Program-made: the position numbers and the translations under genes
Shown: piece after piece, positions 49,039-64,000 of the stretch
How positions within the stretch are numbered: position 1 is the stretch's first letter
How the letters are laid out: each line of letters starts with the position of its first letter
NCBI GenBank assembly: GCA_046563655.1
Contig: CM102283.1
Coordinates: 8,742,001-8,806,000 of the forward strand
Direction: 5' to 3'
Source: Yuukianura sp. NJ FZ-2021
Taxonomy: Eukaryota
DNA: 64,000 bases
The notes under the pieces: generated by a model
Database searches by the model: none
What the model was told of the DNA's origin: nothing
What the model saw: the letters and a program-made list of their open reading frames with translations, nothing else

Positions 49039-49204
49039 GCAAAGATGCAGTGAAAGTCGTTTGGGGATGAAAAAGTCTACAAAAGTGTGTCGAAATTAGA
49101 AAAAGTTCAAAACGTGGTCCAATTTCTTCCAAAATTTTATGCTTTCTGTAAACAACATTCCGTAAACATTAAAAGATTATGTTTACTAAGATTAGGTTTT
49201 AATT

Positions 49205-50594
49205 GTAAACAGATTTGAGTGATGATTATGAGATTCGGCTACTCTCCGCTCAAAGGCAAAAACTTCAACTGCAAACCAGACGTCACGGAATTACAGGCTT
49301 CGCAGGGATATGTCGAAACACATTTCATAACCTCTAATTTTTAAATGGGATTTTCATCGTAAACAGATTTGAGTAGTGATTATGAGATTCGGCTACTTTC
49401 TGCTCAAAGGCAAAAACTTCAACTGCAAACCAGACGTCACGGAATTACAGGCTTCGCAGGGATATGTCGAAACACATTTCATAACCTCTAATTTTTAAAT
49501 GGGATTTTCATCGTAAACAGATTTGAGTAGTGATTATGAGATTCGGCTACTTTCTGCTCAAAGGCAAAAACTTCAACTGCAAACCAGACGTCACGGAATT
49601 ACAGGCTTCGCAGGGATATGTCGAAACACATTTCATAACCTCTAATTTTTAAATGGGATTTTCATCGTAAACAGATTTGAGTGGTGATTATGAGATTCGG
49701 CTACTTTCTGCTCAAAGGCAAAAACTTCAACTGCAAACCAGACGTCACGGAATTACAGGCTTCGCAGGGATATGTCGAAACACATTTCATAACCTCTAAT
49801 TTTTAAATGGGATTTTCATCGTAAACAGATTTGAGTGGTGATTATGAGATTCGGCTACTTTCTGCTCAAAGGCAAAAACTTCAACTGCAAACCAGACGTC
49901 ACGGAATTACAGGCTTCGCAGGGATATGTCGAAACACATTTCATAACCTCTAATTTTTAAATGGGATTTTCATCGTAAACAGATTTGAGTAGTGATTATG
50001 AGATTCGGCTACTCTCCGCTCAAAGGCAAAAACTGCAACTGCAAACCAGACGTCACGGAATTACAGGCTTCGCAGGGATATGTCGAAACACTATTTCTAA
50101 TCTCTAAATTTTAAATGGGATTTTCATCGTAAACAGATTTGAGTGGTGATTATGAGATTCGGCTACTTTCTGCTCAAAGGCAAAAACTTCAACTGCAAAC
50201 CAGACGTCACGGAATTACAGGCTTCGCAGGGATATGTCGAAACACTATTTCTAATCTCTAACTTTTAAATGGGATTTTCATCGTAAACAGATTTGAGTGA
50301 TGATTATGAGATTCGCCTACTTTCTGCTGAAAGGCAAAAACTTCAACTGCAAACCAGACGTCAGGGAATTTCAGGGTTGGCAGGGATATGTCGAAACACT
50401 ATTTCTAATCTCTAATTTTTAAATGGGATTTTCATCCTAAGCAGATTTGAGTGATGATTATGAGATTCGGCTACTCTCCGCTCAAAGGCAAAAACTTCAA
50501 CCGCAAACCAGACGTCACGGAATTTCAGGCTTCGCAGGGATATGTCGAAACACATTTCCTAAACCCTAATTTTTAAATGGAATTTCTAGTAAAC
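49205..50594. repeat. 154-bp satellite array, ~9 copies
   Basis: GTAAACAGATTTGAGT (or a close variant) recurs at 49205, 49359, 49513, 49667, 49821, 49975, 50129, 50283 and 50437. Confidence 0.97.
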
Positions 50595-50729
50595 AACATC
50601 CAGTAATACAAATTGGCCCTGCATTAACATGTATTAAAATGTATTAAAATTATATTTACTTTAGATATAATTAAGCTATGTATCAAACAACCTTATCGTT
50701 AACGATGTTTTCAGAACTTTTTACTACGT

Positions 50730-53700
50730 CTACAGGTAGAAAAGCGTACTTTGAAGACGATCGGATGGATCTTCTTTCAAAACGTGTCCAATGAATCCCG
50801 CAGCCTTGTGTGCATACTGGAAAAAAACATAAATAAACATGAAAAGTTCATTTCTGAAAAAAATGGCGGTAATGACCTGACACACTGCTGGAATTCGAAT
50901 GCTTCCAGGCCAATTGAAATACGTAAAGGAAGCAGCGTAGGTTGCTCTCTTGATAAATTCAAAATCTCCTACTTCATCTTCCAGCACGACACATCGCGTG
51001 GGTTGAACTGAAACCTGGAACGAGAACAATTCGTCCGAAAAGTTCCATTTTCTGCTTAAACTCACTCGGAAATAGAAATTACACCATTCAGCATTACATT
51101 ATTTCCACGGCTCATCTGGGAAAACAAGAAAAAGTCTTGGTAATCAGTTCGCGTAATCGTGTTATCCACAACTGTGCCAGGAATTGGATTCAAGAAATCT
51201 TCTCCCTAAAATAGAACAAAAAGTAATCAAGCATTTCATGTTCCAAAAAGTGCAGCAACATTATGAAACTTACATGAAGTAGTACAAGTCTATCAGTTGT
51301 GTACTTCTGCACAAGAACTACTGTTAAAGTTGGTCGTGGTGTCGTCAAAAGTTCCAAACTTCGTTTCATTTGGGCTATTTCGTGATCTTTGATAAGTCCC
51401 AAGTACATGTTGGACACTCCATCACGGAAAACGAGAACTCGTGATGGCCAACGTCCACATTCCTTGTAAAATTCAACATAAGCGTCGAAGAATATTGGTC
51501 CCAGAGTGTCACCAGTTTCTAGTCCTGGGTATTGCATCAAAGTACGAGTGTAGTACTTTGTACACTGAGGATTCAGACTGAAAACGATAGCATAGACACT
51601 GGACTGTCTTGTACGTGAGTGGTAAGCATCAATTCCAACTGTCATAATCGCTTCGTCCATGTCCTAAATCACACGAATTTCAAAGAAAAGGACAAGAATA
51701 GATCAATAAATTCTAGTCATGAAAATACTTGGAATTTACTTGCCTCGTCGCGAGTATCCAGAGCCCATGGAGCACCTCCGAGTTTACAGCATATTTGTCT
51801 TGTAATGTCTTTTACCACACCGGTAAATACTTTAGTGGTAAGCGTCTTGGCTCGAATGGCTTGAGAAGGAACGCCAAACTCTACACTGCAAAGACGTTTC
51901 ACGGTTTGATACAAAGTGGCGGGAGAACTTCTCGGTAGAATAAAAACAACCAGCTGATAACTCTGAAAAGTTAATCAGATTAATCAATTAAACCAAGACT
52001 AGTCAGAAGCGTATGAATGGTGGTATGTTTTGGCAAACCATTTCGACTTGGCGTAAAGCCTGTACGAACTTGACTGCTAAAGATTCCCTGTCGCTGCCAT
52101 CCACGAACAACTTTGTACAAATACTCTTGACTCCAACGTACTCCAATCCTGAAGAAGAGCATTCTGCTGCAAACGACTCGCCGAACTTAGCTGCTAGAGG
52201 TGTGTCCTCGATGGTGGAAATCAAAATCCAATGTAACAGTGGCACCTACAAGAAATAATGAATATTAGGCAATAATAGTAAAGAAATACTCCGGTACAAG
52301 GTTTATGTTTTACACAAGCGTAGAATGGAGTGGATCCAGCTGATGTCCGAAAGTTCAGCTGAGCGTCAAGATTATTACGAATTAAAGTGTCACCAAAGTC
52401 AAGAGTAAGCGATTTGTTCATGATGATCCTCGGACCAGGTAAAACAGTTCCTACAACTTCAACAAACGACGATTCAAGTTGAATGTTCCACTGGTTGAAC
52501 AGCTTTTGCACAGTTTGACTAGCTGCAATAATAATTTTGAAGAACTGAAGTTATAATTTGAGAAGATGATTAAAAGTAACTTACATTGTAGTTGATCCAT
52601 GTAGCTCTTCAGAATACAAACCATTTTCTTGGGAGACGGGTTCACATACTTCTCGATTTCGTTGGACATTGCCGGGTTACTCTTAGATTCCTTCAGTATA
52701 TCACATGTAAAGCAGAGTTCTGGAATATGAACTACAAAATATTGTTCTGAGTCCATCTAAAAAAAATCCAAACCGGTTAGCACGAGAAAGAAGTAAGAAT
52801 AAAAGTATGTTTTAGTGGTCAATACATTACAATCATTGGTTGCCGACACTGGTACAAGTTGTTTGCTCCCCTCTTTGGTAGTCGTCCACATTTTGTTAGC
52901 AGGATTGGTTGTGACAAGTCAACAATCTGAATACCGTACTGCTCACGGTAGTAATCCAAAAAGCTTATCTAAATCAAATCATAGCTGTAAGTCGTAAAAT
53001 TAACGGCCAAAGGTGTTAAAAATCTGAACGTTAAGCCAGTAGTGGTAGTACATTCTCGTTGCTGTATAAAAACGTTGACAAAGGGTTCAGATCCCATCGA
53101 ACTTTGTGCACTGGATAAAAAGCTGTTGTCCGAGTAGGAGTACGAATCATTTTGGAAAATACGAGCTTCTCAAACGTGAGCCTTCTAACGTCTTCATCTT
53201 CAGTGTTCACGGATGACCTGTTAAGACATCCAGCATTACCAAAAACCAACAACACAAACGAATAATTCTTACAACAGGTCAAGGAGACTTTGTGTACGAG
53301 TGACACGGAAGGATGGCTCCATCCATAGCATAGGTGCTTGCTCGATCTCTCTTGTTCCAAACCGAATTCCACATTGGATTTCAATCCTTCAAACAAAAAA
53401 TCATACACTTTTATTCGTTGTTTATTATGCCAAAAATAATCTAAGTTACCGAAATTCGGGCAGCTGTATCTTTGTATCGTACACTCCGTCCCCGAGTCTT
53501 CGTACACCTAGAAGTCCAAATCCTCTCCGTACAAGTACCGTTAGAAAAGAATGTGTATGGGGCGATGAGGACGTTGCCGAAACGTCCACTCGTCGGAATT
53601 CAACTTCTACCGTCCGCTCTTCGTGGTAAGGAATCTTTGCACCAAGACGATAAACCTACAAGAATCATACGGGATTAACCAATGACAAAAATTAACTTAT

Positions 53701-54074
53701 ACCAAATTGTTTAGTACCTGCTGTGCACTCCCCCGATTAGATGGTGAAGGCTCTGCGTCAGCAGGTAAGGCAGTAGTAGTAGTCTCAATGCTTCCAGGAA
53801 GGTAAATTACATTACGTAGATCGTCGAACAAGTAGATTTTCCCAAGGACTTCATGGAATTGTTGAATGACAAGCGACCTTCGTACTGGTGATGGTAGTTC
53901 CGGGGTAAATGTAACAGCATACTTGAAGAACAGGTCATTTTCCTTCAAAAACCGAAATCTCACTGAATTTGTTAAAATTCTTTGATTGAAGCTGAAAGTA
54001 AAACGTTTTAATATTTATCAAGATTAGCAAACTGGAGTATGCATGCGGAATGTTTTGAGTTACCGATGGTCCAT
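50730..54074 (-). CDS. Divergent PIWI-clade Argonaute, ~14 exons, ~810 aa
   Basis: N domain ILTNSVRF..KYAVTFTP..IYLFD. PAZ RWDLNPLSTF..ISFLDYYREQYGIQIVDLSQPIL..IPELC. MID LYQTVKRLC..VPSQ..QICCKLGGAPW. PIWI VGIDAYH, FRDGVS, NPIPGTVVD, YFNWPGSIRIPAVCQYAHK, and C-terminal LFYL. All exons can be spliced in frame. Confidence 0.92.
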
Positions 54075-54262
54075 TTTAAATCAAAGTTAAACTGGCACAG
54101 GTCAAATCCAGGTCAGCAGTAGCAGGTTTGTCCGTCCTCAGCTGTTCGTGATTCCAGATTCTAACAGCTGAGTTTACAGCTGAATCTGTCTCATATTTTC
54201 GCGGCAAATTCAAATATAATATGGACTTTGAATTTAGGCGGGCTTTCTCCATTCCAATTTCA

Positions 54263-54277
54263 GTTTCACGTGACAAC
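54263..54277. promoter_or_regulatory. RFX X-box-like element in the PIWI/MORN3 bidirectional promoter
   Basis: GTTTCACGTGACAAC (it also contains the E-box CACGTG), ~240 bp from the MORN3 ATG and ~190 bp from the PIWI ATG. Confidence 0.6.
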
Positions 54278-54516
54278 CACTATTTTTTAGCGTCCTTGTT
54301 TACCAATGTAAAAACAATAGCATGCTTCCTGGTTTTTTCATTTGATTTGATTGACACTGACGACGACAGTTATAAATATCGATTATCAATTAGATTTTTA
54401 TTCTTATTTAGTAGCCACTCATTTTCATAAGCCTAACGGTCATTTTTTTTTCTCCTGATTTTATTCAAAATTCACAAGCTGCTTGACCTTCACTCCAAAA
54501 ACGAAATTCTGACGAC

Positions 54517-55321
54517 ATGCCATATTTAAAATCCCTCAAAGATTCGCGCCCATGGTGGAGAGACGCCATGACGAAAGTTGCCCGGAACGGATTCCGTGCA
54601 GCGACATTTGGAGCCACCTCGGGAGACAAGTATACTGGAGAGTTCAAGGACGATGTCAAGCACGGTAAGCGAACAACTTCAACTTATGTAAATTTTAGAT
54701 CAATTGATTGATGTGCTGAATTATTCATATCCAGGGAAAGGAGTTCAGTACTACTCTAATGGAACGGTGTACGAAGGAGACTGGGCCGATGGAACTCGTC
54801 AAGGTCACGGCATTCTCAGCACCGACTGTGGCCACGGTGTCCATTCTCGAATCTACACTGGAATGTGGCATAACGACAAACCACATGGATTTGGTCTCCG
54901 ACAGTACAAAGATGGCAGTTTGTACAAGGGCATGTTTGGTCAAGGACTAAGACATGGTTATGGATGTATGTACTACCCGGATGGTCGGATTTACATGGGC
55001 CAGTGGACCAATGGGAGTCGAACAGGGGTAGGTCGTCTCATCCAATCAGACACCAAGAACTACTATGAAGGATCTTTCCACAAGGGAGTCAAGTGTGGTC
55101 GTGGAAGATACTACCATGTGAATACTGGGCAAATCCAAGATGGCGTCTGGGAGAGTAACATGGCCAAAGTGTCGCTCATGTGGGACGACAAGCGGACTCG
55201 CCCAATTGCCAAGCATCCTACACCTTACCCCATCCCACCAACTTACCTGGACAAACCTGCCATTGTCCTAATGGAAGCGGCTGTCCCAGTATTCGAACGA
55301 ACTAAAATTTGCAGCGCATAA
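54517..55321 (+). CDS. MORN3: MORN repeat-containing protein 3, 2 exons
   Basis: Intron 54665-54734. MP..W...ARNGFR..GDKYTGEFKDDVKHGKG, MORN repeats, and GQIQDGVWESNMAK..PTPYPIP..P..VLMEA, collinear with MORN3. Confidence 0.9.
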
Positions 55322-55765
55322 GCATTTTCCAAAATTTGTCAAAAACTACCAATCAATTTTTGTGTTTATGTAAAAATAATTCCATTTTAGCCAAATTAAA
55401 AATATTCAAAGGCAGAACACTATACCTATTTAGCACGGAAGTTAACTTTAATAATTTAGATTTTTTTAGAGCTTTGCAAAACAAAGTTGTCAATAAAAAT
55501 TTTAAAAAGTTTTCAACAGAAATATCCTAAAAGTAAAAATTTTTGCAAAAAAAAAATGGCTGAGGTAATGCTGGCCTGACACGCCTTCGAATTTAGACTG
55601 AAATTAAAATAGCTTTCAAGTAACTTAAAATTTAAAAAGGCGAAAAAAAAACTTCCTCGTAAATTCGTAACCATATCCACCTCACATATGCCTTTTCTTT
55701 TTTGAAATTTCGCAGTTTCATTAGGTGTCCATTGACGTTCGTTCAAAGTTGTTGTGAATTTCATC

Positions 55766-57080
55766 ATGCGTCTCTTAGAAAATAACGTCTTTCGATTGTA
55801 TTCAATCTCCGTCAATTTTGCAAGTTTCCTTCAAATCATTCCGTACAAATGGAACAGTCAGAAACAATTAATTGGTCTAAAAAAGTCAAAGTTACAATTA
55901 AAAATTTGGAAAAGTTTAGCATACTTGTCAATTGTCCACCAAATTTTCATTTCAATTAGACTTTACCAGTCCATTTCAGCTCAACAAGAGTCGTTCACGT
56001 ACTACTGTATCCAGGTCACATACTACAACTGGTTCATGGTCCTTGTCGTGGTTCAAATGTCTATTCTTGTGTTTCAAACAGAATTGATGCTATTCTTGAA
56101 TCGGTTTATCCTTTATTGCAACAGACTACAAAGTAAATGACAAAAATTTAAAAAGAAAATCCAATTAATTTTACCAAACTTACTTTTTCTAGAAAAATTC
56201 ATCAAACGCAATAATCCGAAGTCATTCTGGAATTGGCAACTGGAACTGCAATGTGTTCTGGCAAGTTTCAATTGCATGACGATCTTCTGTCCAGTACTCA
56301 CCATGATGATTTTCATTGAATTTCCGCATAACCAACTATTCATAACTTCTGTACTGCCATACGAAAGTCACTGGATCAACGTCTTTTTCGTTGGAATTCC
56401 AGTTAACATGTATTTTAACCTATGTATTTGGGCTACTTGTAACGCAATTGTCCACTTCGTCACACCGTGGGCCTATGTCACAATTTTCCTCAACAATGAA
56501 CTCAAGTATAATCAAAAATAATTTTCAATTATAAACTTGAAACCACAAAAACATTAATTCTTCCTGTTCTAGGGTCAAGGGCAGAAGCAAATTCACAAAG
56601 ATGGGATTTCGGAAACCATGGATGATATTTCACACATACCGATGCATGCAACTTCTAACGAATCAAATCAATACTATGACCAATATTCCTCTCATGATTG
56701 TCAATGACCTCATGGTTATAATGATTGTCCTCTCCAACCTCATTTTAGTTCGATTTCGAGACCGTCTCAATATATTTGCTGTAATTCTGTACTGCATCGT
56801 TGGTGGCTCAGCCTTCATGTATTTGGTAATGACTTACATTAAATTCGGAGAAGTGAATGCCATTTCTATTAAAACAATTAAATCCTTAAAGCGGTATCAA
56901 ATCGGTCTGGAAAACCTTGAGAAAAGAACAGTCGGGAAATACATGAGAAGTTGTGCACCGTTAAAAATACAAATTGGGTCATTCGGTCACTATAAAAAAC
57001 CGAATACAATTAGAATAGTCGGAAAACAATTGACCTACACGCTCAAATTTCTGCTAATGACAAAAAAGTTTTTCAAGTAA
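55766..57080 (+). CDS. Multi-pass membrane protein, insect chemoreceptor (GR/OR)-like, copy A, ~395 aa
   Basis: Exons 55766-56132, 56193-56505, 56573-57080. About 7 hydrophobic segments; the C-terminal APLKIQIGSFG..TIRIVGKQLTYTL resembles the TM7 region of the 7TM ion-channel chemoreceptor superfamily. Confidence 0.75.
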
Positions 57081-57332
57081 AATTCGGAAGCGTCAAAAAA
57101 GTTCATAGAAGTAAGAATATAAGACCAATAATTTATGTAACTGAAAGTGCTAAATTTTTGAGAAATGTTGTATAAAATACTAACAAGGTCAATTCAAATC
57201 CAAATTCTGCACTAGTTTTTAACTAACTAACTGAAAATACTGCATTTTGTAATTAATTACTGTTGATCATACTGTGTAATAAAAATTCCTAAGGTACATA
57301 ACTATTGTTGACTAACTTAAAATGGCACAAGG

Positions 57333-57520
57333 TCATTTCCGCTTAGAAATTGCGGGGAACTTACGATCCAACCAAGTGCCGATTGATTTCATGAAATTTC
57401 TTCCGTTGACTTCGCATAAAAATTGGTATTACGATGGTTTCAAGTTTTGTAGTTCGAGTATTCCAACATGAAACAGTAAAGACGTAGGAGTCGCAAAAAG
57501 CAATTACCATCCTCCATCTG
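57333..57520 (-). pseudogene. Degenerate duplicate of the TMEM135 last exon
   Basis: Aligns with 59609-59930 but has an internal deletion of ~135 bp and many substitutions. Confidence 0.85.
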
Positions 57521-57830
57521 CATAAATAGTTTAGATTTTTTTGAAAGCTACTTTCAAAACAAAGGTCAATAAAAATTTCATAATTCCTCAAATTATATTA
57601 TACTAAAAAGTCAAAAAATTTTTTGCAAGCGACACCCAAATGGCTGAAATATTGTCGACACGCCTACTTTAGACTCAAATGCCGACTTTTAAGTAATAAA
57701 AAAATTTCAAAACTCGAAAAAAGAAATTCCTAGTAAATTCGTAAGCACCTCACATACGCCTTTTCTTTTTTGAAATTTTCCAGTTTCATTAGGTGTCCAT
57801 CGACGTTCCTTCAAAGTCGGGAATTCCAAA

Positions 57831-59359
57831 ATGCGTCTTCTGGAAAACAACGTCCTTCGATTATATTCAATCTCCATCAATTTTGCAAGTTTTCTTCAAA
57901 TCATTCCGTACGAATGGAACAGTCAGCAACAATTAATCGGCCTAAAAAAGTCAAAGTTGCAATTAAAAATTTGGAAAAGTTTAGCATACTTGTCAATTGT
58001 CCATCAAATTTTCATTTCAATTAGACTTTACCAGTCAATTTCAGCTCAACAAGAGTCGTTCACTTTCTACTGCATCCAGGTCACCTACTACATCGGTTTC
58101 TCGCTCCTTCTCGTCCTTCAAATGTCTTTTGTTGCCTTTCAAACGGAATGGATGCTGTTCTTGAACCGATTCATCCTTTACTGCAACAGAATACAACGTA
58201 AATTACAAAAAGCTAAAACAAAATTTAATTTATCGATAACTATTTTCACAAAACTTACTTTTGCAGAAAAGTTCATGAAACGAAATAATCCGGAGTCATT
58301 CTGGAACTGGCAACTGGAACTGCAATGTGTCCTGGCAAGTTTCAGCTGCATGACGATCTTCTGTCCAGTACTCACCATGATGTTTTTCATTGAATTTCCG
58401 CATGCGCAACTATTCATTACATCTGTACTGCCATACGAAAGTCACTGGATCAACGTCTTTTTCGTTGGAATTCCAGTTAACATGGTGTTTAACCTATGGA
58501 TTTGGGCTACTTGTAACGTAATTCTCCACTTCATCACACCGTGGGCCTATGTCACAATTTTCCTCAACAATGAACTCAAGTATAATCATATAGACATGCC
58601 AAAAATATTTAGTTCCCATGCCTGTAATGTCAACAGAATCAATATTTTGGGCTTTTTTATTACTAAGTATTTATTGATTTTCCCATGCTCTTAATGTTAA
58701 TTAAGTAAATATTTTGAGGTTTTTAATGAAAAATATTTAATATTTAAATATTTTGCGGGTTTTTAGTAAATATTTTTGGCATGTCTAAAATCAAGAATAA
58801 TTTTCAATTATAAATTTCAAACCACAAAAACATTAATTTTTCCTGTTCTAGGGTCAAAGGCACAAGCAGATTTACGAAGATGGCATTTCGGAAACCCTGG
58901 ATGATATTTCACACCTACCGATGCTTGCAACTTCTAACGAATCAATTCAATACTTTGGCCAGTATTGTTCTCATGACTGTAAATGATCTCATGGTTGTAA
59001 TGACTGTACTCTCCAACTTCATTTTAGTTCGATTCCGACATCGTCTCAATATATTTTCCGTAATTCTGTACTACATCGTTGGTGGCTCAGGATTCATATA
59101 TTTGGTAATGGCTTACATCAAATTCGGCGAAGTCAATGGCATTTCTATAAAAACAATCAAATCCTTAAAGCGGTATCAAATCGGTCTGGAGAAACTTGAA
59201 AAAAGAACAGTCGGGAAATACATGCGAAGTTGTGCACCGTTAAAAATACAAATTGGGTCATTCGGTCACTTTAAAAAACCAAATACAATTAGAATAGTAG
59301 GAAAACAACTGACGTACACGCTCAAATTTTTGCTAATGACAAAAAAGTTTTTCAAGTAA
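57831..59359 (+). CDS. Chemoreceptor-like 7TM protein, copy B
   Basis: Same three-exon structure as copy A and a highly similar protein. Confidence 0.75.
58591..58787. mobile_element. hAT-like MITE in intron 2 of receptor copy B
   Basis: TIR TAGACATGCCAAAAATATTTA / TAAATATTTTTGGCATGTCTA. Absent from the same intron of copy A (empty site TAATCAAA); flanks TAATCATA / AAATCAAG. Confidence 0.88.
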
Positions 59360-59608
59360 AAATCGATCGCATGTAAAAACAGTACACAAAGAAGTAAGAC
59401 GATGAATAAGTTACGTACTAAAGCGTGCTAAATTTTTAAAAAATGCTCTATAAAATGAGAACACTGTCAACCGAAATTTCAATTCTGCACTAGTTTTGAA
59501 CTAACTAAACTGAAAATACTGCAATTAATTACTGTTGATCATATACTGTGTAATAAAAATGCCCTAAAGCTGGTTAACTATTTTTGACTAACTTTCCATG
59601 GCACAACG

Positions 59609-61623
59609 TCATTTCCGCTTAGAAATTGCGGTGAGCGTAAGTTCCTTGATCATTTCATTTCCTCTTCCATAAGTTTCTCTATCCTCCAGTAGCTTCTTCA
59701 TGTACGGTGTAATCCGTTTCTTGTCTAAAGTTGGCCAGAAATCCTTCATGAGTGAGTTGCTAGCGGTTCCATAGACTGTAGTCAAGTGTCGATTGATTTC
59801 ATGGAATTTCTTGCCAGTGACTTTGCATAGAAATTGGTAATACGATGGCTTCAAATTTTGTGGTTCGAGTATTCCAGCATGAAACAGAACAGACGTAGAA
59901 ATAGCAAAGAGCAAAGACCATCCTCCACCGTAGGCTGAATCGAACCATGTTATGAATCGGTAGTTGTTTTGCCTGTAACAAAAATTAGTTAAATTATGAA
60001 ACTGAGGAATCAAAATTCAAAAATTATGAAATGCAATTACTTACTCGTGAGCTTCCCTGACTACAGATTCCAGCGCTTTGAAGAAGACGTAAAGAGCAAT
60101 CGTCGGGGGAGGACGGAGAAGCGCAAATCCAAAGGCGGAAGTCATTACACCAGCAGCCACGGCGTGAATCGGATCTTCATTTCCCAGAAGCCAACGGAAG
60201 GCACACGACAGGAGTCGAAAGGAGAGGCAGATGGAGCTAAATCCAGCTCCAGTTTTAATGCAATTGTATGAAATTATTGAAGGGCGTTTTAGCAGTGGCA
60301 GCTTTTTAGAAGAACGTGACAGGAGTAGAGACCGAATGAACATGAAGATGTTAATTAGTAATTGAATTCCAATTCCAGCTCCAAATCGAGACAGGAAGCC
60401 CTAAAAAAATACACAGTTTATATCTGTACACAAAGTCAAGATTAGCATCCAGTCTTACTTCAATCCAATAGTCGAAACATGGCTTCCGATGAGGGCAAGT
60501 ATCGTGTAATCGTCCTTCGTAAACCGCAGCTACCATTCGTTCCAAATGACAAGCGATATCTTCCACTTGACGGTGCATCCATAACACAAATCTTATAAAT
60601 CGTGCTCGGTAACTTTCATCTCTCTTTCGATTTGGTTGTGGATTTTGGACAACTTGGCCATTTTCGTTAACTTCCATCGCTGGGCCACCAATCACTAAGC
60701 CTGGTCCGACGTTGTTGACTTCGCGCTGGCCCATTATGGCTTCATTCCTTTCGGCTTCAAGTTCTGGAGCAATGAGAACTTCCTCTTGTGCTGACACTTC
60801 TTTTCGAGTAAATTCTTCCCTCCCAATTATTGTCCTAGTTAACGAGAGACAAAGTTAATTCCACTTAATTCTGAATGACGTGATAATTTGATCAATTATC
60901 AATTCTTACTTCAGTACTGTATTAACTGCATCAGTTGCTTTGTTGTTGGATTTCTTCATTTGATACAAAAGAGTAGTTGTAGAAATGATAAACAAGACTA
61001 GATCGAAGTGCTTAATGTTTTGAACGATCCCTCTGAAAACAAAAGTCCCTCCATTTATAATATCAAACTGATTTCATCTTAGTTAATTTCCATACCTGGC
61101 TCGAAGCATGCGGAATATCGTTTCAAAAGCGACATTTGTGACATATAACGCCAACGCTGAACGTCGATGTGGCTTTTCAATAAGTATGGCAGCATATGAT
61201 CCCAGGAAAGCCGGCAAGTATCCCACACTTAAAAAATTAAAGTGGCCGAAAACTTTACGCAGGAGACAGAATGCCACAACGAAGCCGAATCCATTGACGC
61301 CAAGAAAGGTTGACGACCGAACGACATCTTTCAGTATCTTGAGCACTTCCTCTCTGCTATTCGGGTAGCGCTTACTGGCAAGGAGGGACACCTAAAAAGT
61401 GAAATTAGGCAACCACGATTAAAACAAATTCTGAAGCAGTTAACTAAGAAGCTATATGTTAACGTAAACGTACCACATAACATGATGTATAAATCTTAAA
61501 ACTTTCTTTGAAACAGTGATAGCCTATGCCAACTGCAGCCTTTGTACATGAAGGATTCCATGTGTGACCCAATTCGTAGCAGTTGAATGGTAGTCGATGA
61601 AATTTACTTGCAGCTGGAGCCAT
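59609..61623 (-). CDS. TMEM135: Transmembrane protein 135
   Basis: NCYELGHTWNPSC, ESFKIY, RSSTFLGVNG, YAAILIEKPHRRSALALYVTNVAFETIFRM, HDTCPH..C, EPQNLKPSYYQFL. Confidence 0.92.
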
Positions 61624-62203
61624 ACTTCAATTTCAATTGGATAATCAATCAGTACGAATAAATTCCTTAGTCGCTGGACATGGGCATGGGGTGACAGACT
61701 TGTTGACTGTCAACGGCACAATTACCCAGCATGAACAGCTGATGGTGGATACTGGGCAACAAAACAATAACCAACACCGACAACAACATAAAAAGTGTAG
61801 ACACCGAGACCGAGACCGAATTTCGGTGCATTTTTAGAAACTTTGTTTTAGATTTCTTAATTCAAATTGTGTGAATCCCGCTCCCGCTGCAGTCTCACTT
61901 GCTAAATCTGTCATAGAAAATTGTTTAACAATAAGGTTATGAATGCTGAAATTCTGGACAATATGGACGCATAAAATATTTGTAGGTAGTAATCGTTGTT
62001 TCATTTGTCAATTGCGGTGGGTTTTATCACGTGAGACACTTCCTGGTTGTCAGAAGTAAACTAGTAATTTCCAAGTGATACATTAATTAAATTAATTAAA
62101 AATTCCAGACTTTACGCTAACAAAGTCCAAACTTGCACCAAACATTGCAGTTCTCAGGTAGGACTACTAAGAAGCCAGCGAATTCTTCAGTGTAAAAAAA
62201 AGT

Positions 62204-63157
62204 ATGAAAATGAATTCCAAGATTTGTGTTCTAATTTCAATCTGCCTAATGGCGACAATTCCTATGGGCTCAGCGTTCAAAATATTTGGATTTGATCCGT
62301 TCAATGCCCTGTTCGTTGGCGTCGACTACGTTTTGAACAACGCCACTGAAATCCCGCTTCCGGAGAAACCGAAACTGACCCTAGGAACAATCGAAGAAGC
62401 CCAACATTACGTTCATTTTGCTGCTGCAACGTACTGTGACAACGAGAACCTAAGCGATTGGAGCTGCATCGAGTGTCGACGAGCAAGTCCGGATGTCAAA
62501 CTACTAACGGTCATGACCGATAAGTGGCTAGCGACTCAGGGAATTATCACTGAAAATAAAGTCACGGATGAGGTCGTAGTGGTATTCCGTGGAAGCGTTT
62601 ACTTTATGAACTACGTTCAAGATTTTGTTAACATGGGCAAAGGACCATCGCCCTACGGTGAACCAAATATAGAAATTCACAATGGATTCTTGGCCTCAAC
62701 TGATTCAGTTTACGACGATCTTCTACCAATTGTCAGTAAATTGTACAAAGACAAGCCAAGCCGAACGATTACGTTGGTTGGACACAGCCTTGGAGCATCC
62801 ATGGCCCTCTTGACATATTTCAGACTTCGGCATGACATTCCGGACGCCAAGTATCAACTTTTCAGTTACGGTCAACCGAGGACAGGAAATACCGCATTTG
62901 CAGACTGGTTCAACAGCCAAACGTTGAAGACAGCCAGAGTTGTCAATGGTGGCGACATTACTCCGCATATCTTCCCTGCCTACTTGTCAAATGCGCATGT
63001 TCAAACAGAATTCTGGATCCATGATGGACAAACGACTATTTGCTCGCAAAAGGATTACGAAGATCCAAATTGTTCAAATTCAGTTGATGTCGACGACCTC
63101 AGTACAAAGGATCATTTGAACTACTACGGAACTGTATTGGGATCTTGTACAGAATGA
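62204..63157 (+). CDS. Secreted class-3 triacylglycerol lipase, fungal type, intronless
   Basis: Signal peptide; ATYC, WSCIEC, VVFRGS, HNGF, GHSLG (Ser), YGQPRTGN, GDITPH (Asp), EDPNCSNSV, DHLNYYG (His). Confidence 0.95.
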   Translation: MKMNSKICVLISICLMATIPMGSAFKIFGFDPFNALFVGVDYVLNNATEIPLPEKPKLTLGTIEEAQHYVHFAAATYCDNENLSDWSCIECRRASPDVKLLTVMTDKWLATQGIITENKVTDEVVVVFRGSVYFMNYVQDFVNMGKGPSPYGEPNIEIHNGFLASTDSVYDDLLPIVSKLYKDKPSRTITLVGHSLGASMALLTYFRLRHDIPDAKYQLFSYGQPRTGNTAFADWFNSQTLKTARVVNGGDITPHIFPAYLSNAHVQTEFWIHDGQTTICSQKDYEDPNCSNSVDVDDLSTKDHLNYYGTVLGSCTE

Positions 63158-63304
63158 GAATAATTATGAGATTAACTAATCGGCATTAAAAAAAACAGTC
63201 ATGTTGGTCGTTTATGGTTCCATTAGGATAACAATTTAAAAAAGAATCTAACAATAAGTTATATTTTCATAACGTAAAAATGTATTGAGAAATACTGTCG
63301 AAAC

Positions 63305-63314
63305 AAAAAAAAAA
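63305..63314 (-). terminator. RNA polymerase III terminator of the 5S gene
   Basis: T10 run on the minus strand directly after the 5S 3' end. Confidence 0.85.
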
Positions 63315-63316
63315 GA

Positions 63317-63436
63317 ATGCCAAGAGCACCCGGGGTTCCCAGGCGGTCACCCATCCAAGTACTAACCGGGCCCGACGTTGCTTAACTTCAGTGATCGGAC
63401 GAGAACTGGTGCTTTCAACGTGGTATGGACCTTGGC
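63317..63436 (-). rRNA. 5S rRNA
   Basis: GCCAAGGTCCATACCACGTTGAAAGCACCAGTTCTCGTCCGATCACTGAAGTTAAGC...AGTACTTGGATGGGTGACCGCCTGGGAACCCCGGGTGCTCTTGGCA; complementary ends, and intact A and C boxes. Confidence 0.97.
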
Positions 63437-63594
63437 GAAATGTGACGGGAAAATAGCACATCATAAACTTCGTCACAACCACAACAAAAATCCGTCTGTG
63501 TGAACCCCGATCATCCAGTTTCGAATCAAATATACAAAATGATTATCGTTTTCAGTATTTTATGTAACTGTTTTTGCTCTTTGTAAATTTTGGT

Positions 63595-63610
63595 GGCCCT
63601 TAAAAGGGCC
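63595..63610 (-). other. Replication-dependent histone 3' stem-loop
   Basis: GGCCCTTTTAAGGGCC followed by ACCA, then a purine-rich AAAGAG histone downstream element. Confidence 0.93.
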
Positions 63611-63675
63611 TTTGGTCAAATAGGAATAATGTTGATAAATTAATTTGCATTTGGAGTAGATCTGTGATGTTGGAA

Positions 63676-64000
63676 TTATTTGGAGGAAGTGTATTTGGTG
63701 ACAGCCTTGGTTCCTTCAGAGACTGCGTGTTTGGCCAATTCTCCGGGGAGCAGAAGACGAACAGCAGTTTGAATCTCGCGGGAAGTGATGGTGGTCCGCT
63801 TGTTGTAGTGGGAGAGACGAGAGGCCTCAGCAGCAATCCGTTCGAAGATGTCGTTGACGAAGGAGTTCATGATTGACATGGCCTTGGAGGAGACGCCAGT
63901 GTCCGGATGAACTTGCTTGAGGACCTTGTAGATGTAGATGGCGTAGGACTCCTTCCTCTTCATCTTCTTTTTCTTCTTGTCCCCCTTCGAGATGTTCTTC
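63676..64000 (-). CDS. H2B: Histone H2B (5' end outside the window)
   Basis: [34 protein letters not shown]...AVTKYTSSK. Confidence 0.99.

Follow-up and report, generated by a model that had tools for sequence, protein, structure and literature searches.

The 64,000-nucleotide (nt) stretch analysed here (contig CM102283.1, positions 8,742,001 to 8,806,000; hereafter the window) is metazoan DNA with a G+C content of 36%, and its minus strand carries a gene for a PIWI-type Argonaute protein between positions 54074 and 50730. Exons were placed by eye from the sequence and from stop-to-stop frames (Table 1). The resulting model has 14 exons and a 2439-nt frame of 812 codons plus TAG, with no internal stop, so that the position and strand given in a preliminary description of this DNA proved correct. 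The 13 introns are short, each about 60–85 nt; 12 have GT-AG borders and one, 3' of exon 10, is a GC-AG intron with donor GCAAGT at 51743. The same description had proposed an ATG at 54074 as the start, with an 11-nt first exon and an in-frame TGA 9 nt upstream, and the sequence bore this out: the 12 bases 5' of the ATG read CTT TGA TTT AAA, the 11-nt coding piece is followed by donor GTAACT, and residue 9 is the first of the N domain. Because exons 2 and 3 contain no Met codon, this ATG is the sole start that yields the whole N domain.

PIWI-clade proteins bind 2'-O-methylated PIWI-interacting RNAs (piRNAs) of 24–31 nt, and within the clade Ago3 is the slicer that partners Aub or Siwi in the ping-pong cycle, acting on the sense-strand side with A at guide position 10. 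Pfam profiles were scanned exon by exon over 13 exon pieces. The Piwi profile (PF02171) matched four of the 13, exons 10–13, which covered profile positions 1–288 of 302 and are not chance matches; the domain order was Piwi_N (weak), PAZ, ArgoL2 (weak) and Piwi, that is N-PAZ-MID-PIWI. The protein aligned end to end with 61 reference PIWIs. Among solved structures, the catalytic exon 11 matched best to mouse PIWIL2/MILI (7yfx, 7yfy; 59.5 bits) and sponge EfPiwi (7kx7; 48 bits), with EfPiwi, Siwi and PIWIL1 at 46–48 bits and AGO-clade chains at no more than 34; for exon 10, Siwi scored 39 bits and no AGO-clade MID domain exceeded 23. On these scores the protein is assigned to the PIWI clade and not to AGO. 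The AGO clade of microRNA and small-interfering-RNA Argonautes was rejected because its chains reached about half the bits of the PIWI chains over exons 10 and 11.

All the motifs listed in the preliminary description were found in the 812-residue model. The slicer tetrad comprises D584 (VGID, 581), E621 (GLE, 619), D653 (RDGV, 652) and H787 (YAHK, 785), and the MID pocket has Y517..K521, PSQ at 531 and CKLGG at 558. These columns are near-invariant in the 61 references, where D, E, D and H occupy the tetrad positions in 59, 55, 58 and 53 sequences, respectively, and where MID residues Y517, K521, Q533 and K559 each match in 61 of 61; the claim that the tetrad and the residues for the guide 5' phosphate are retained was thus upheld. 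We take the tetrad columns to be the catalytic ones from the numbering of Siwi, which is consistent with the offsets of the structure matches.

Outside these residues the protein is strongly diverged. An exhaustive HMMER search with exon 11 over 1.84 billion representatives returned 512 relatives at an expect value (E) ≤1e-3 and no match at E 1e-30 or better, and the full-length matches were 31–41% identical in this exon, the best conserved of the gene. The absence of any match in a word-index protein search with exon 11 reflects a limit of that method, since HMMER found 512 relatives. Over the whole protein, identity was 28–31% to named Ago3 proteins and 25% to Folsomia Siwi; as a yardstick, termite Ago3 and sea-urchin Seali are 51% identical. 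By domain, identity to Ago3 proteins was 24–25% in N+L1, 25–31% in PAZ, 15–22% in L2, 29–32% in MID and 35–42% in PIWI, in agreement with the strong divergence of N, L1 and PAZ noticed earlier.

Close relatives were found in metagenome contigs. A scan returned 46 loci, among which L002, L001, L010 and L012 were close to the window gene. L002 (4797 nt), from another organism, is full length and spans residues 7–812 of the window model; its own model has 15 exons and 829 residues and is identical to the window protein at 441 of 785 aligned positions (56%), rising to 60% between exon 2 and L002 across residues 7–74. Twelve of the 13 introns agree in position and phase between the two genes, the exception being junction 7, where the L002 model may be off. 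L002 has one extra intron, within its equivalent of exon 11, and the GCAAGT donor recurs there (3294) and not at intron 10. L001, L010 and L012 are partial homologues. Amino-acid identity to L002 or L001 was 56–66%, a level at which synonymous sites are saturated. L010 and L012, which are nearly identical to each other and come from the metagenome of L002, account for a second, deep branch within the subfamily, with lengths of 1.0 and 0.77 measured from the split. Relative to L002 they represent either paralogues of a single animal or genes of two species. Each of the four retains D-E-D, Y-K-Q-K and, following the catalytic RDGV, an S-N-x-Y loop; H is likewise present wherever the locus extends to it. 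Odd features common to four loci are therefore traits of a conserved subfamily and not the decay of one copy. Separately, positions 60–115 of L002 contain AAAACGTCG four times in about 55 nt, some 300 nt upstream of its candidate start codon; this repeated motif may be a promoter element.

A disordered N-terminus of arginine-glycine or arginine-alanine (RG/RA) repeats is a usual feature of the PIWI clade and not a strictly defining one. PIWI proteins are usually tethered to Tudor-domain scaffolds by methylated arginines of this leader, and Ago3 likewise binds Tudor proteins through a leader carrying symmetric dimethyl-arginine (sDMA). For Aub and Siwi, two reports describe Tudor binding through sDMA on the N-terminal RG region (PMC8249470, PMC7560202). 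Leader length was counted up to where the first strand of the N domain (ILTN...) begins. It came to 8 residues in the window protein and 37 in L002, both with no RG/GR dipeptide; nine rows named Ago3 have leaders of 138–198 residues with 6–13 RG/GR, and an unnamed protein of the springtail Orchesella dallaii (CAL8111645.1, hereafter P0007) has one of 182 residues with 23. Some unnamed reference rows are also short at the N-terminus, where truncated gene calls are possible. The preliminary description had stated that the RG/RA leader is missing, and it was missing from every model that the DNA permits, in L002 as in the window gene.

The missing leader could instead be an error at the 5' end of the model, in which a distant or alternative first exon supplies an RG-rich leader to an ordinary-looking Ago3. 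The model was built from DNA alone, and its 11-nt first piece is unlike the candidate first exon of L002 in sequence. An upstream RG-rich exon was looked for and none lay within 10 kb: the minus strand from 54075 to 64000 has no stop-free 40-residue window with at least four RG/GR, and a divergent MORN-repeat gene begins about 440 nt away. Alternative ATG-to-GT pieces in the 440 nt between the two genes, in phase with exon 2, encode at most 12 residues and no RG. The first exons possible in phase in L002 reach 31 residues at most and contain no RG. Its 643 nt of upstream sequence lack any RG-rich frame, and a matching phase-2 intron stands directly ahead of the N domain. The leaders of six reference PIWIs gave only scattered matches at E >2 in the window, none of them just upstream on the minus strand, and nothing at E ≤1 in L002 and L001. 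The window gene and L002 agree at 58% of residues in N+L1; exon 2 is therefore translated and needs an upstream ATG. With this evidence we regard a hidden RG-rich first exon as quite improbable.

To place the gene, trees were built from named Ago3/PIWIL2 and Piwi/Aub/PIWIL1 proteins together with the top unnamed representatives. A careful IQ-TREE analysis used 40 rows by 861 columns under LG+C20 with posterior mean site frequencies (PMSF), and a quick tree used 65 rows. In the 40-row tree the Ago3/PIWIL2 side and the Piwi/Aub/PIWIL1 side were split at 100/100, and the window gene, L001, L002, L010 and L012 formed one group (100/100) that nested within arthropod Ago3 (98/99) and pancrustacean Ago3 (96/92). 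Its sister was a pair of Orchesella proteins (100/99), P0007 and the O. cincta 'Protein argonaute-3' (ODM94354.1, P0028), and the 65-row tree placed the subfamily alike. The stem of the subfamily measured 1.84 changes per column, compared with 0.87 for the O. dallaii protein and 2.04 for the O. cincta row. Because the latter is itself long-branched, the tree was rebuilt with O. cincta left out, and the subfamily was still sister to O. dallaii (approximate likelihood-ratio test, SH-aLRT, 99). In these trees the window gene falls in the Ago3 lineage on a long branch, with the Ago3 proteins of springtails (Orchesella) as its sister group, and on this basis the source animal is probably a springtail or a close relative. 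The long stem and the five-member subfamily agree with the divergent, lineage-restricted PIWI first proposed; as for the ordinary short-branch Ago3 or Piwi orthologue against which that proposal had been set, the Ago3 lineage held and the short branch did not. A Piwi/Aub/PIWIL1 type was rejected, as the 100/100 split separates these proteins from the window gene and identity to Folsomia Siwi is low.

This placement raises the question whether the window gene is simply the one Ago3 orthologue of a fast-evolving lineage, working in ordinary ping-pong, with Tudor proteins binding another surface or the need for sDMA lost. The sister position to the Orchesella proteins would suit such an orthologue. 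Springtail Ago3 proteins have diverged too, P0007 being 42–43% identical to other Ago3 proteins and 37% to P0028, and no second PIWI was found in the window, where only chance matches at E >1 occurred. However, P0007 keeps its long RG-rich leader, so the canonical form exists in the sister group, and its branch is less than half as long as the subfamily stem. L002 and L010/L012, from one metagenome, differ deeply, which fits paralogues, with two species also possible, and one report describes several Ago3 copies in the springtail Anurida maritima (PMC5521735). We consider a sole orthologue of this kind unlikely.

Polymorphism was read from DNA contigs of mixed DNA, obtained in four runs of two studies and present as pieces of 200–900 nt. 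Variation was very high, with 206 substitutions and 41 indels over the 4.1 kb from 50600 to 54700. Among the 40 of 206 substitutions listed, 19 were coding (10 synonymous, 9 non-synonymous), giving a rough ratio of non-synonymous to synonymous polymorphism (pN/pS) of about 0.27 for those 40 over 565 synonymous and 1871 non-synonymous sites. Among the 12 of 41 indels listed, 11 were intronic and one was an in-frame 3-nt deletion that removes one CAG of CAGCAG at the end of exon 2 (53718). The polymorphisms listed suggest constraint on the PIWI gene.

Taken together, we think it probable that the locus encodes a functional, selectively maintained Ago3-lineage PIWI that has no RG leader and belongs to a fast-evolving subfamily, with the Orchesella Ago3 proteins as its nearest named relatives. 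Such a protein would load a piRNA-like guide and could cut RNA complementary to it, the activity that Ago3 has in ping-pong. With no sDMA-bearing leader, docking to Tudor domains through sDMA would be impossible for it, and other means of loading and localisation would be needed. The subfamily may have originated by duplication of Ago3 in a springtail-like lineage, followed by quick divergence.

Several observations weigh against this reading. The loop that follows the catalytic RDGV is S-N-M-Y, at positions where the references have G (44/61), D (48/61), G (49/61) and Q (50/61). In human AGO1, slicing is sensitive to alterations of this loop; because it is altered here, the intact tetrad is not proof of an active slicer. 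Across 37 named PIWIs, 129 columns reach 85% conservation or more, and the window protein keeps 82 of these, distributed as 8/16 in N+L1, 15/27 in PAZ, 2/7 in L2, 10/15 in MID and 47/64 in PIWI; with 15 of 27 near-invariant columns kept in PAZ, binding of the guide 3' end may differ. One low-depth contig, from run X4, passes over 136 nt that span the end of exon 2 together with intron 2, and may represent a divergent haplotype or a broken allele. The pN/pS estimate uses one fifth of the variants, from mixed-DNA contigs. Genomic sequence is the sole basis for the 11-nt start exon and the GC-AG intron, and for assuming that the gene is expressed at all. The springtail affinity comes from the gene tree alone, in which long branches can mislead, and the gene search covered the window, so that the gene may be a paralogue or a fast-evolving orthologue.

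Some of these points would also fit a copy that is in decay or has no function, either a young pseudogene or a relic without expression, with a frame still open by chance: 47 of the 129 near-invariant positions are lost, the loop beside the catalytic aspartate is changed, and the 136-nt skip may be real. Such a copy is hard to reconcile with 14 exons that join in frame at canonical splice sites, with the occurrence of the same changes in homologues of no more than 56% identity, which have open frames too, and with catalytic and MID residues retained at all five loci. The low pN/pS and the listed indels, which leave the frame intact, also speak against it. The pseudogene reading was rejected on the open in-frame exons, the residues conserved across loci and the pN/pS, and we hold it to be very improbable.

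A bolder form of the preferred reading is that these genes make up a conserved leaderless Ago3 subfamily of springtail-like hexapods freed from the Tudor/nuage scaffold. It would combine a working slicer centre with a remodelled loop and PAZ pocket and would serve a separate guide-RNA population, for example somatic or antiviral piRNAs, or guides with unmethylated 3' ends. This extension is speculative, and we consider it unlikely. If the subfamily is Tudor-free, it would be a natural experiment on the purpose of the RG leader.

Comparison with known systems sets out what is unusual here. The Orchesella Ago3 proteins are the sister group in all three trees and have the same domain order, tetrad and MID residues. 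P0007 differs in its overall identity of 31% to the window protein, in its RG leader and in a canonical RDGVGDGQL loop, neither of which the window protein has; P0028 as annotated also begins near the N domain, and its annotation may be truncated. Insect Ago3 proteins (Drosophila, Bombyx and others) share the arthropod Ago3 clade and an intact D-E-D-H, with the difference that the N-terminal RG region is absent from the window protein. PIWIL2/MILI and EfPiwi are natural proteins with long leaders, and their identity to the window protein is far lower. The 7yfy chain has 801 residues against 1011 in 7yfx and is presumably shorter at the N-terminus, so the N-terminal part may be dispensable for the fold. 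Duplicated Ago3 genes are a precedent for fast-evolving extra copies: the accessible parts of two reports describe them in A. maritima (PMC5521735) and, with faster evolution after duplication, in the pea aphid Acyrthosiphon pisum and the tsetse fly Glossina morsitans (PMC4824172). Those parts make no mention of loss of the RG leader or of an SNxY loop, and a search of a limited literature library found no leaderless Ago3 or springtail piRNA protein beyond PMC5521735.

Thinking about ping-pong mostly assumes a Tudor link through a methylated leader. Here a natural protein of the Ago3 lineage appears to have lost the leader and kept the catalytic and guide-anchoring residues, a state conserved in several related organisms, and the locus could reveal how a slicer of the Ago3 type behaves once docking through its leader is no longer possible. 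It also adds a full-length example to the thinly documented Ago3 expansion of springtails. Its practical value is modest pending expression and small-RNA binding.

Table 1 Coding exons of the PIWI gene and neighbouring features in the window, with the basis for each assignment
Feature	Position	Strand	Basis or content
Exon 1, coding part	54064..54074	-	ATG plus 8 nt: M-D-H and two bases of codon 4
Exon 2 (N-domain start, ILTNSVRF...; variable low-complexity linker at end)	53718..53991	-	Piwi_N E 0.17, weak
Exon 3 (N/L1)	53450..53655	-	Gene model, L002 comparison
Exon 4 (L1)	53273..53386	-	Gene model, L002 comparison
Exon 5 (PAZ, first part)	53052..53217	-	Pfam PAZ E 0.12
Exon 6 (PAZ core)	52831..52968	-	PAZ E 5.1e-6, 26.9 bits, slightly below the 28.8 cut-off
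Exon 7 (PAZ end with IPELC motif, L2 start)	52585..52756	-	Gene model, L002 model
Exon 8 (L2)	52314..52522	-	ArgoL2 E 0.082
Exon 9 (MID, first part)	52039..52245	-	Gene model, L002 model
Exon 10 (MID 5'-phosphate pocket: Y517, K521, Q533, K559; CKLGG)	51744..51962	-	Piwi E 3e-9
Exon 11 (PIWI RNase H fold core: D584, E621, D653, RDGV-SNMY loop)	51274..51663	-	Piwi E 2.4e-19
Exon 12 (PIWI)	51098..51205	-	Piwi E 5.3e-6
Exon 13 (PIWI; PTRC replaces the usual PTHY)	50877..51014	-	Piwi E 2.6e-4
Exon 14 (YAHK with H787, C-terminal ...LFYL)	50730..50816	-	Stop TAG 50730-50732
Intergenic DNA, PIWI gene to MORN gene	54075..54516		About 440 nt; room for promoter and 5' untranslated region; no RG-coding frame
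MORN-repeat gene, divergent from the PIWI gene	54487-55321, start ~54517	+	Pfam MORN E 1.6e-19
Neighbours: Tim17/PMP24-family piece, TMEM135, single-exon class-3 lipase, histone H2B (window edge)	60044-61391, 62171-63154, 63679-63999	-, +, -	TMEM135 E 2.1e-25; lipase E 1e-29

Around the PIWI gene, the DNA between its start and that of the MORN gene looks like a shared bidirectional promoter. On the other side, a 154-bp satellite (49197-50585, 9 copies, 96% identity) begins about 145 nt past the PIWI stop codon, and each of its copies has the same short open frames on both strands. Beyond the MORN gene lies a tandem pair of multi-exon genes on the plus strand (55736-57080 and 57774-59359) with closely alike long hydrophobic frames; neither had a Pfam match at E 0.001 or better, and they may belong to a lineage-specific membrane or chemoreceptor-like family. 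Besides TMEM135, the class-3 lipase and histone H2B, the window also holds rhodopsin-type receptors, leucine-rich-repeat (LRR) genes and a CAP-domain gene. A 59-bp tandem repeat occupies 901-2756, with 31.5 copies at 98% identity.

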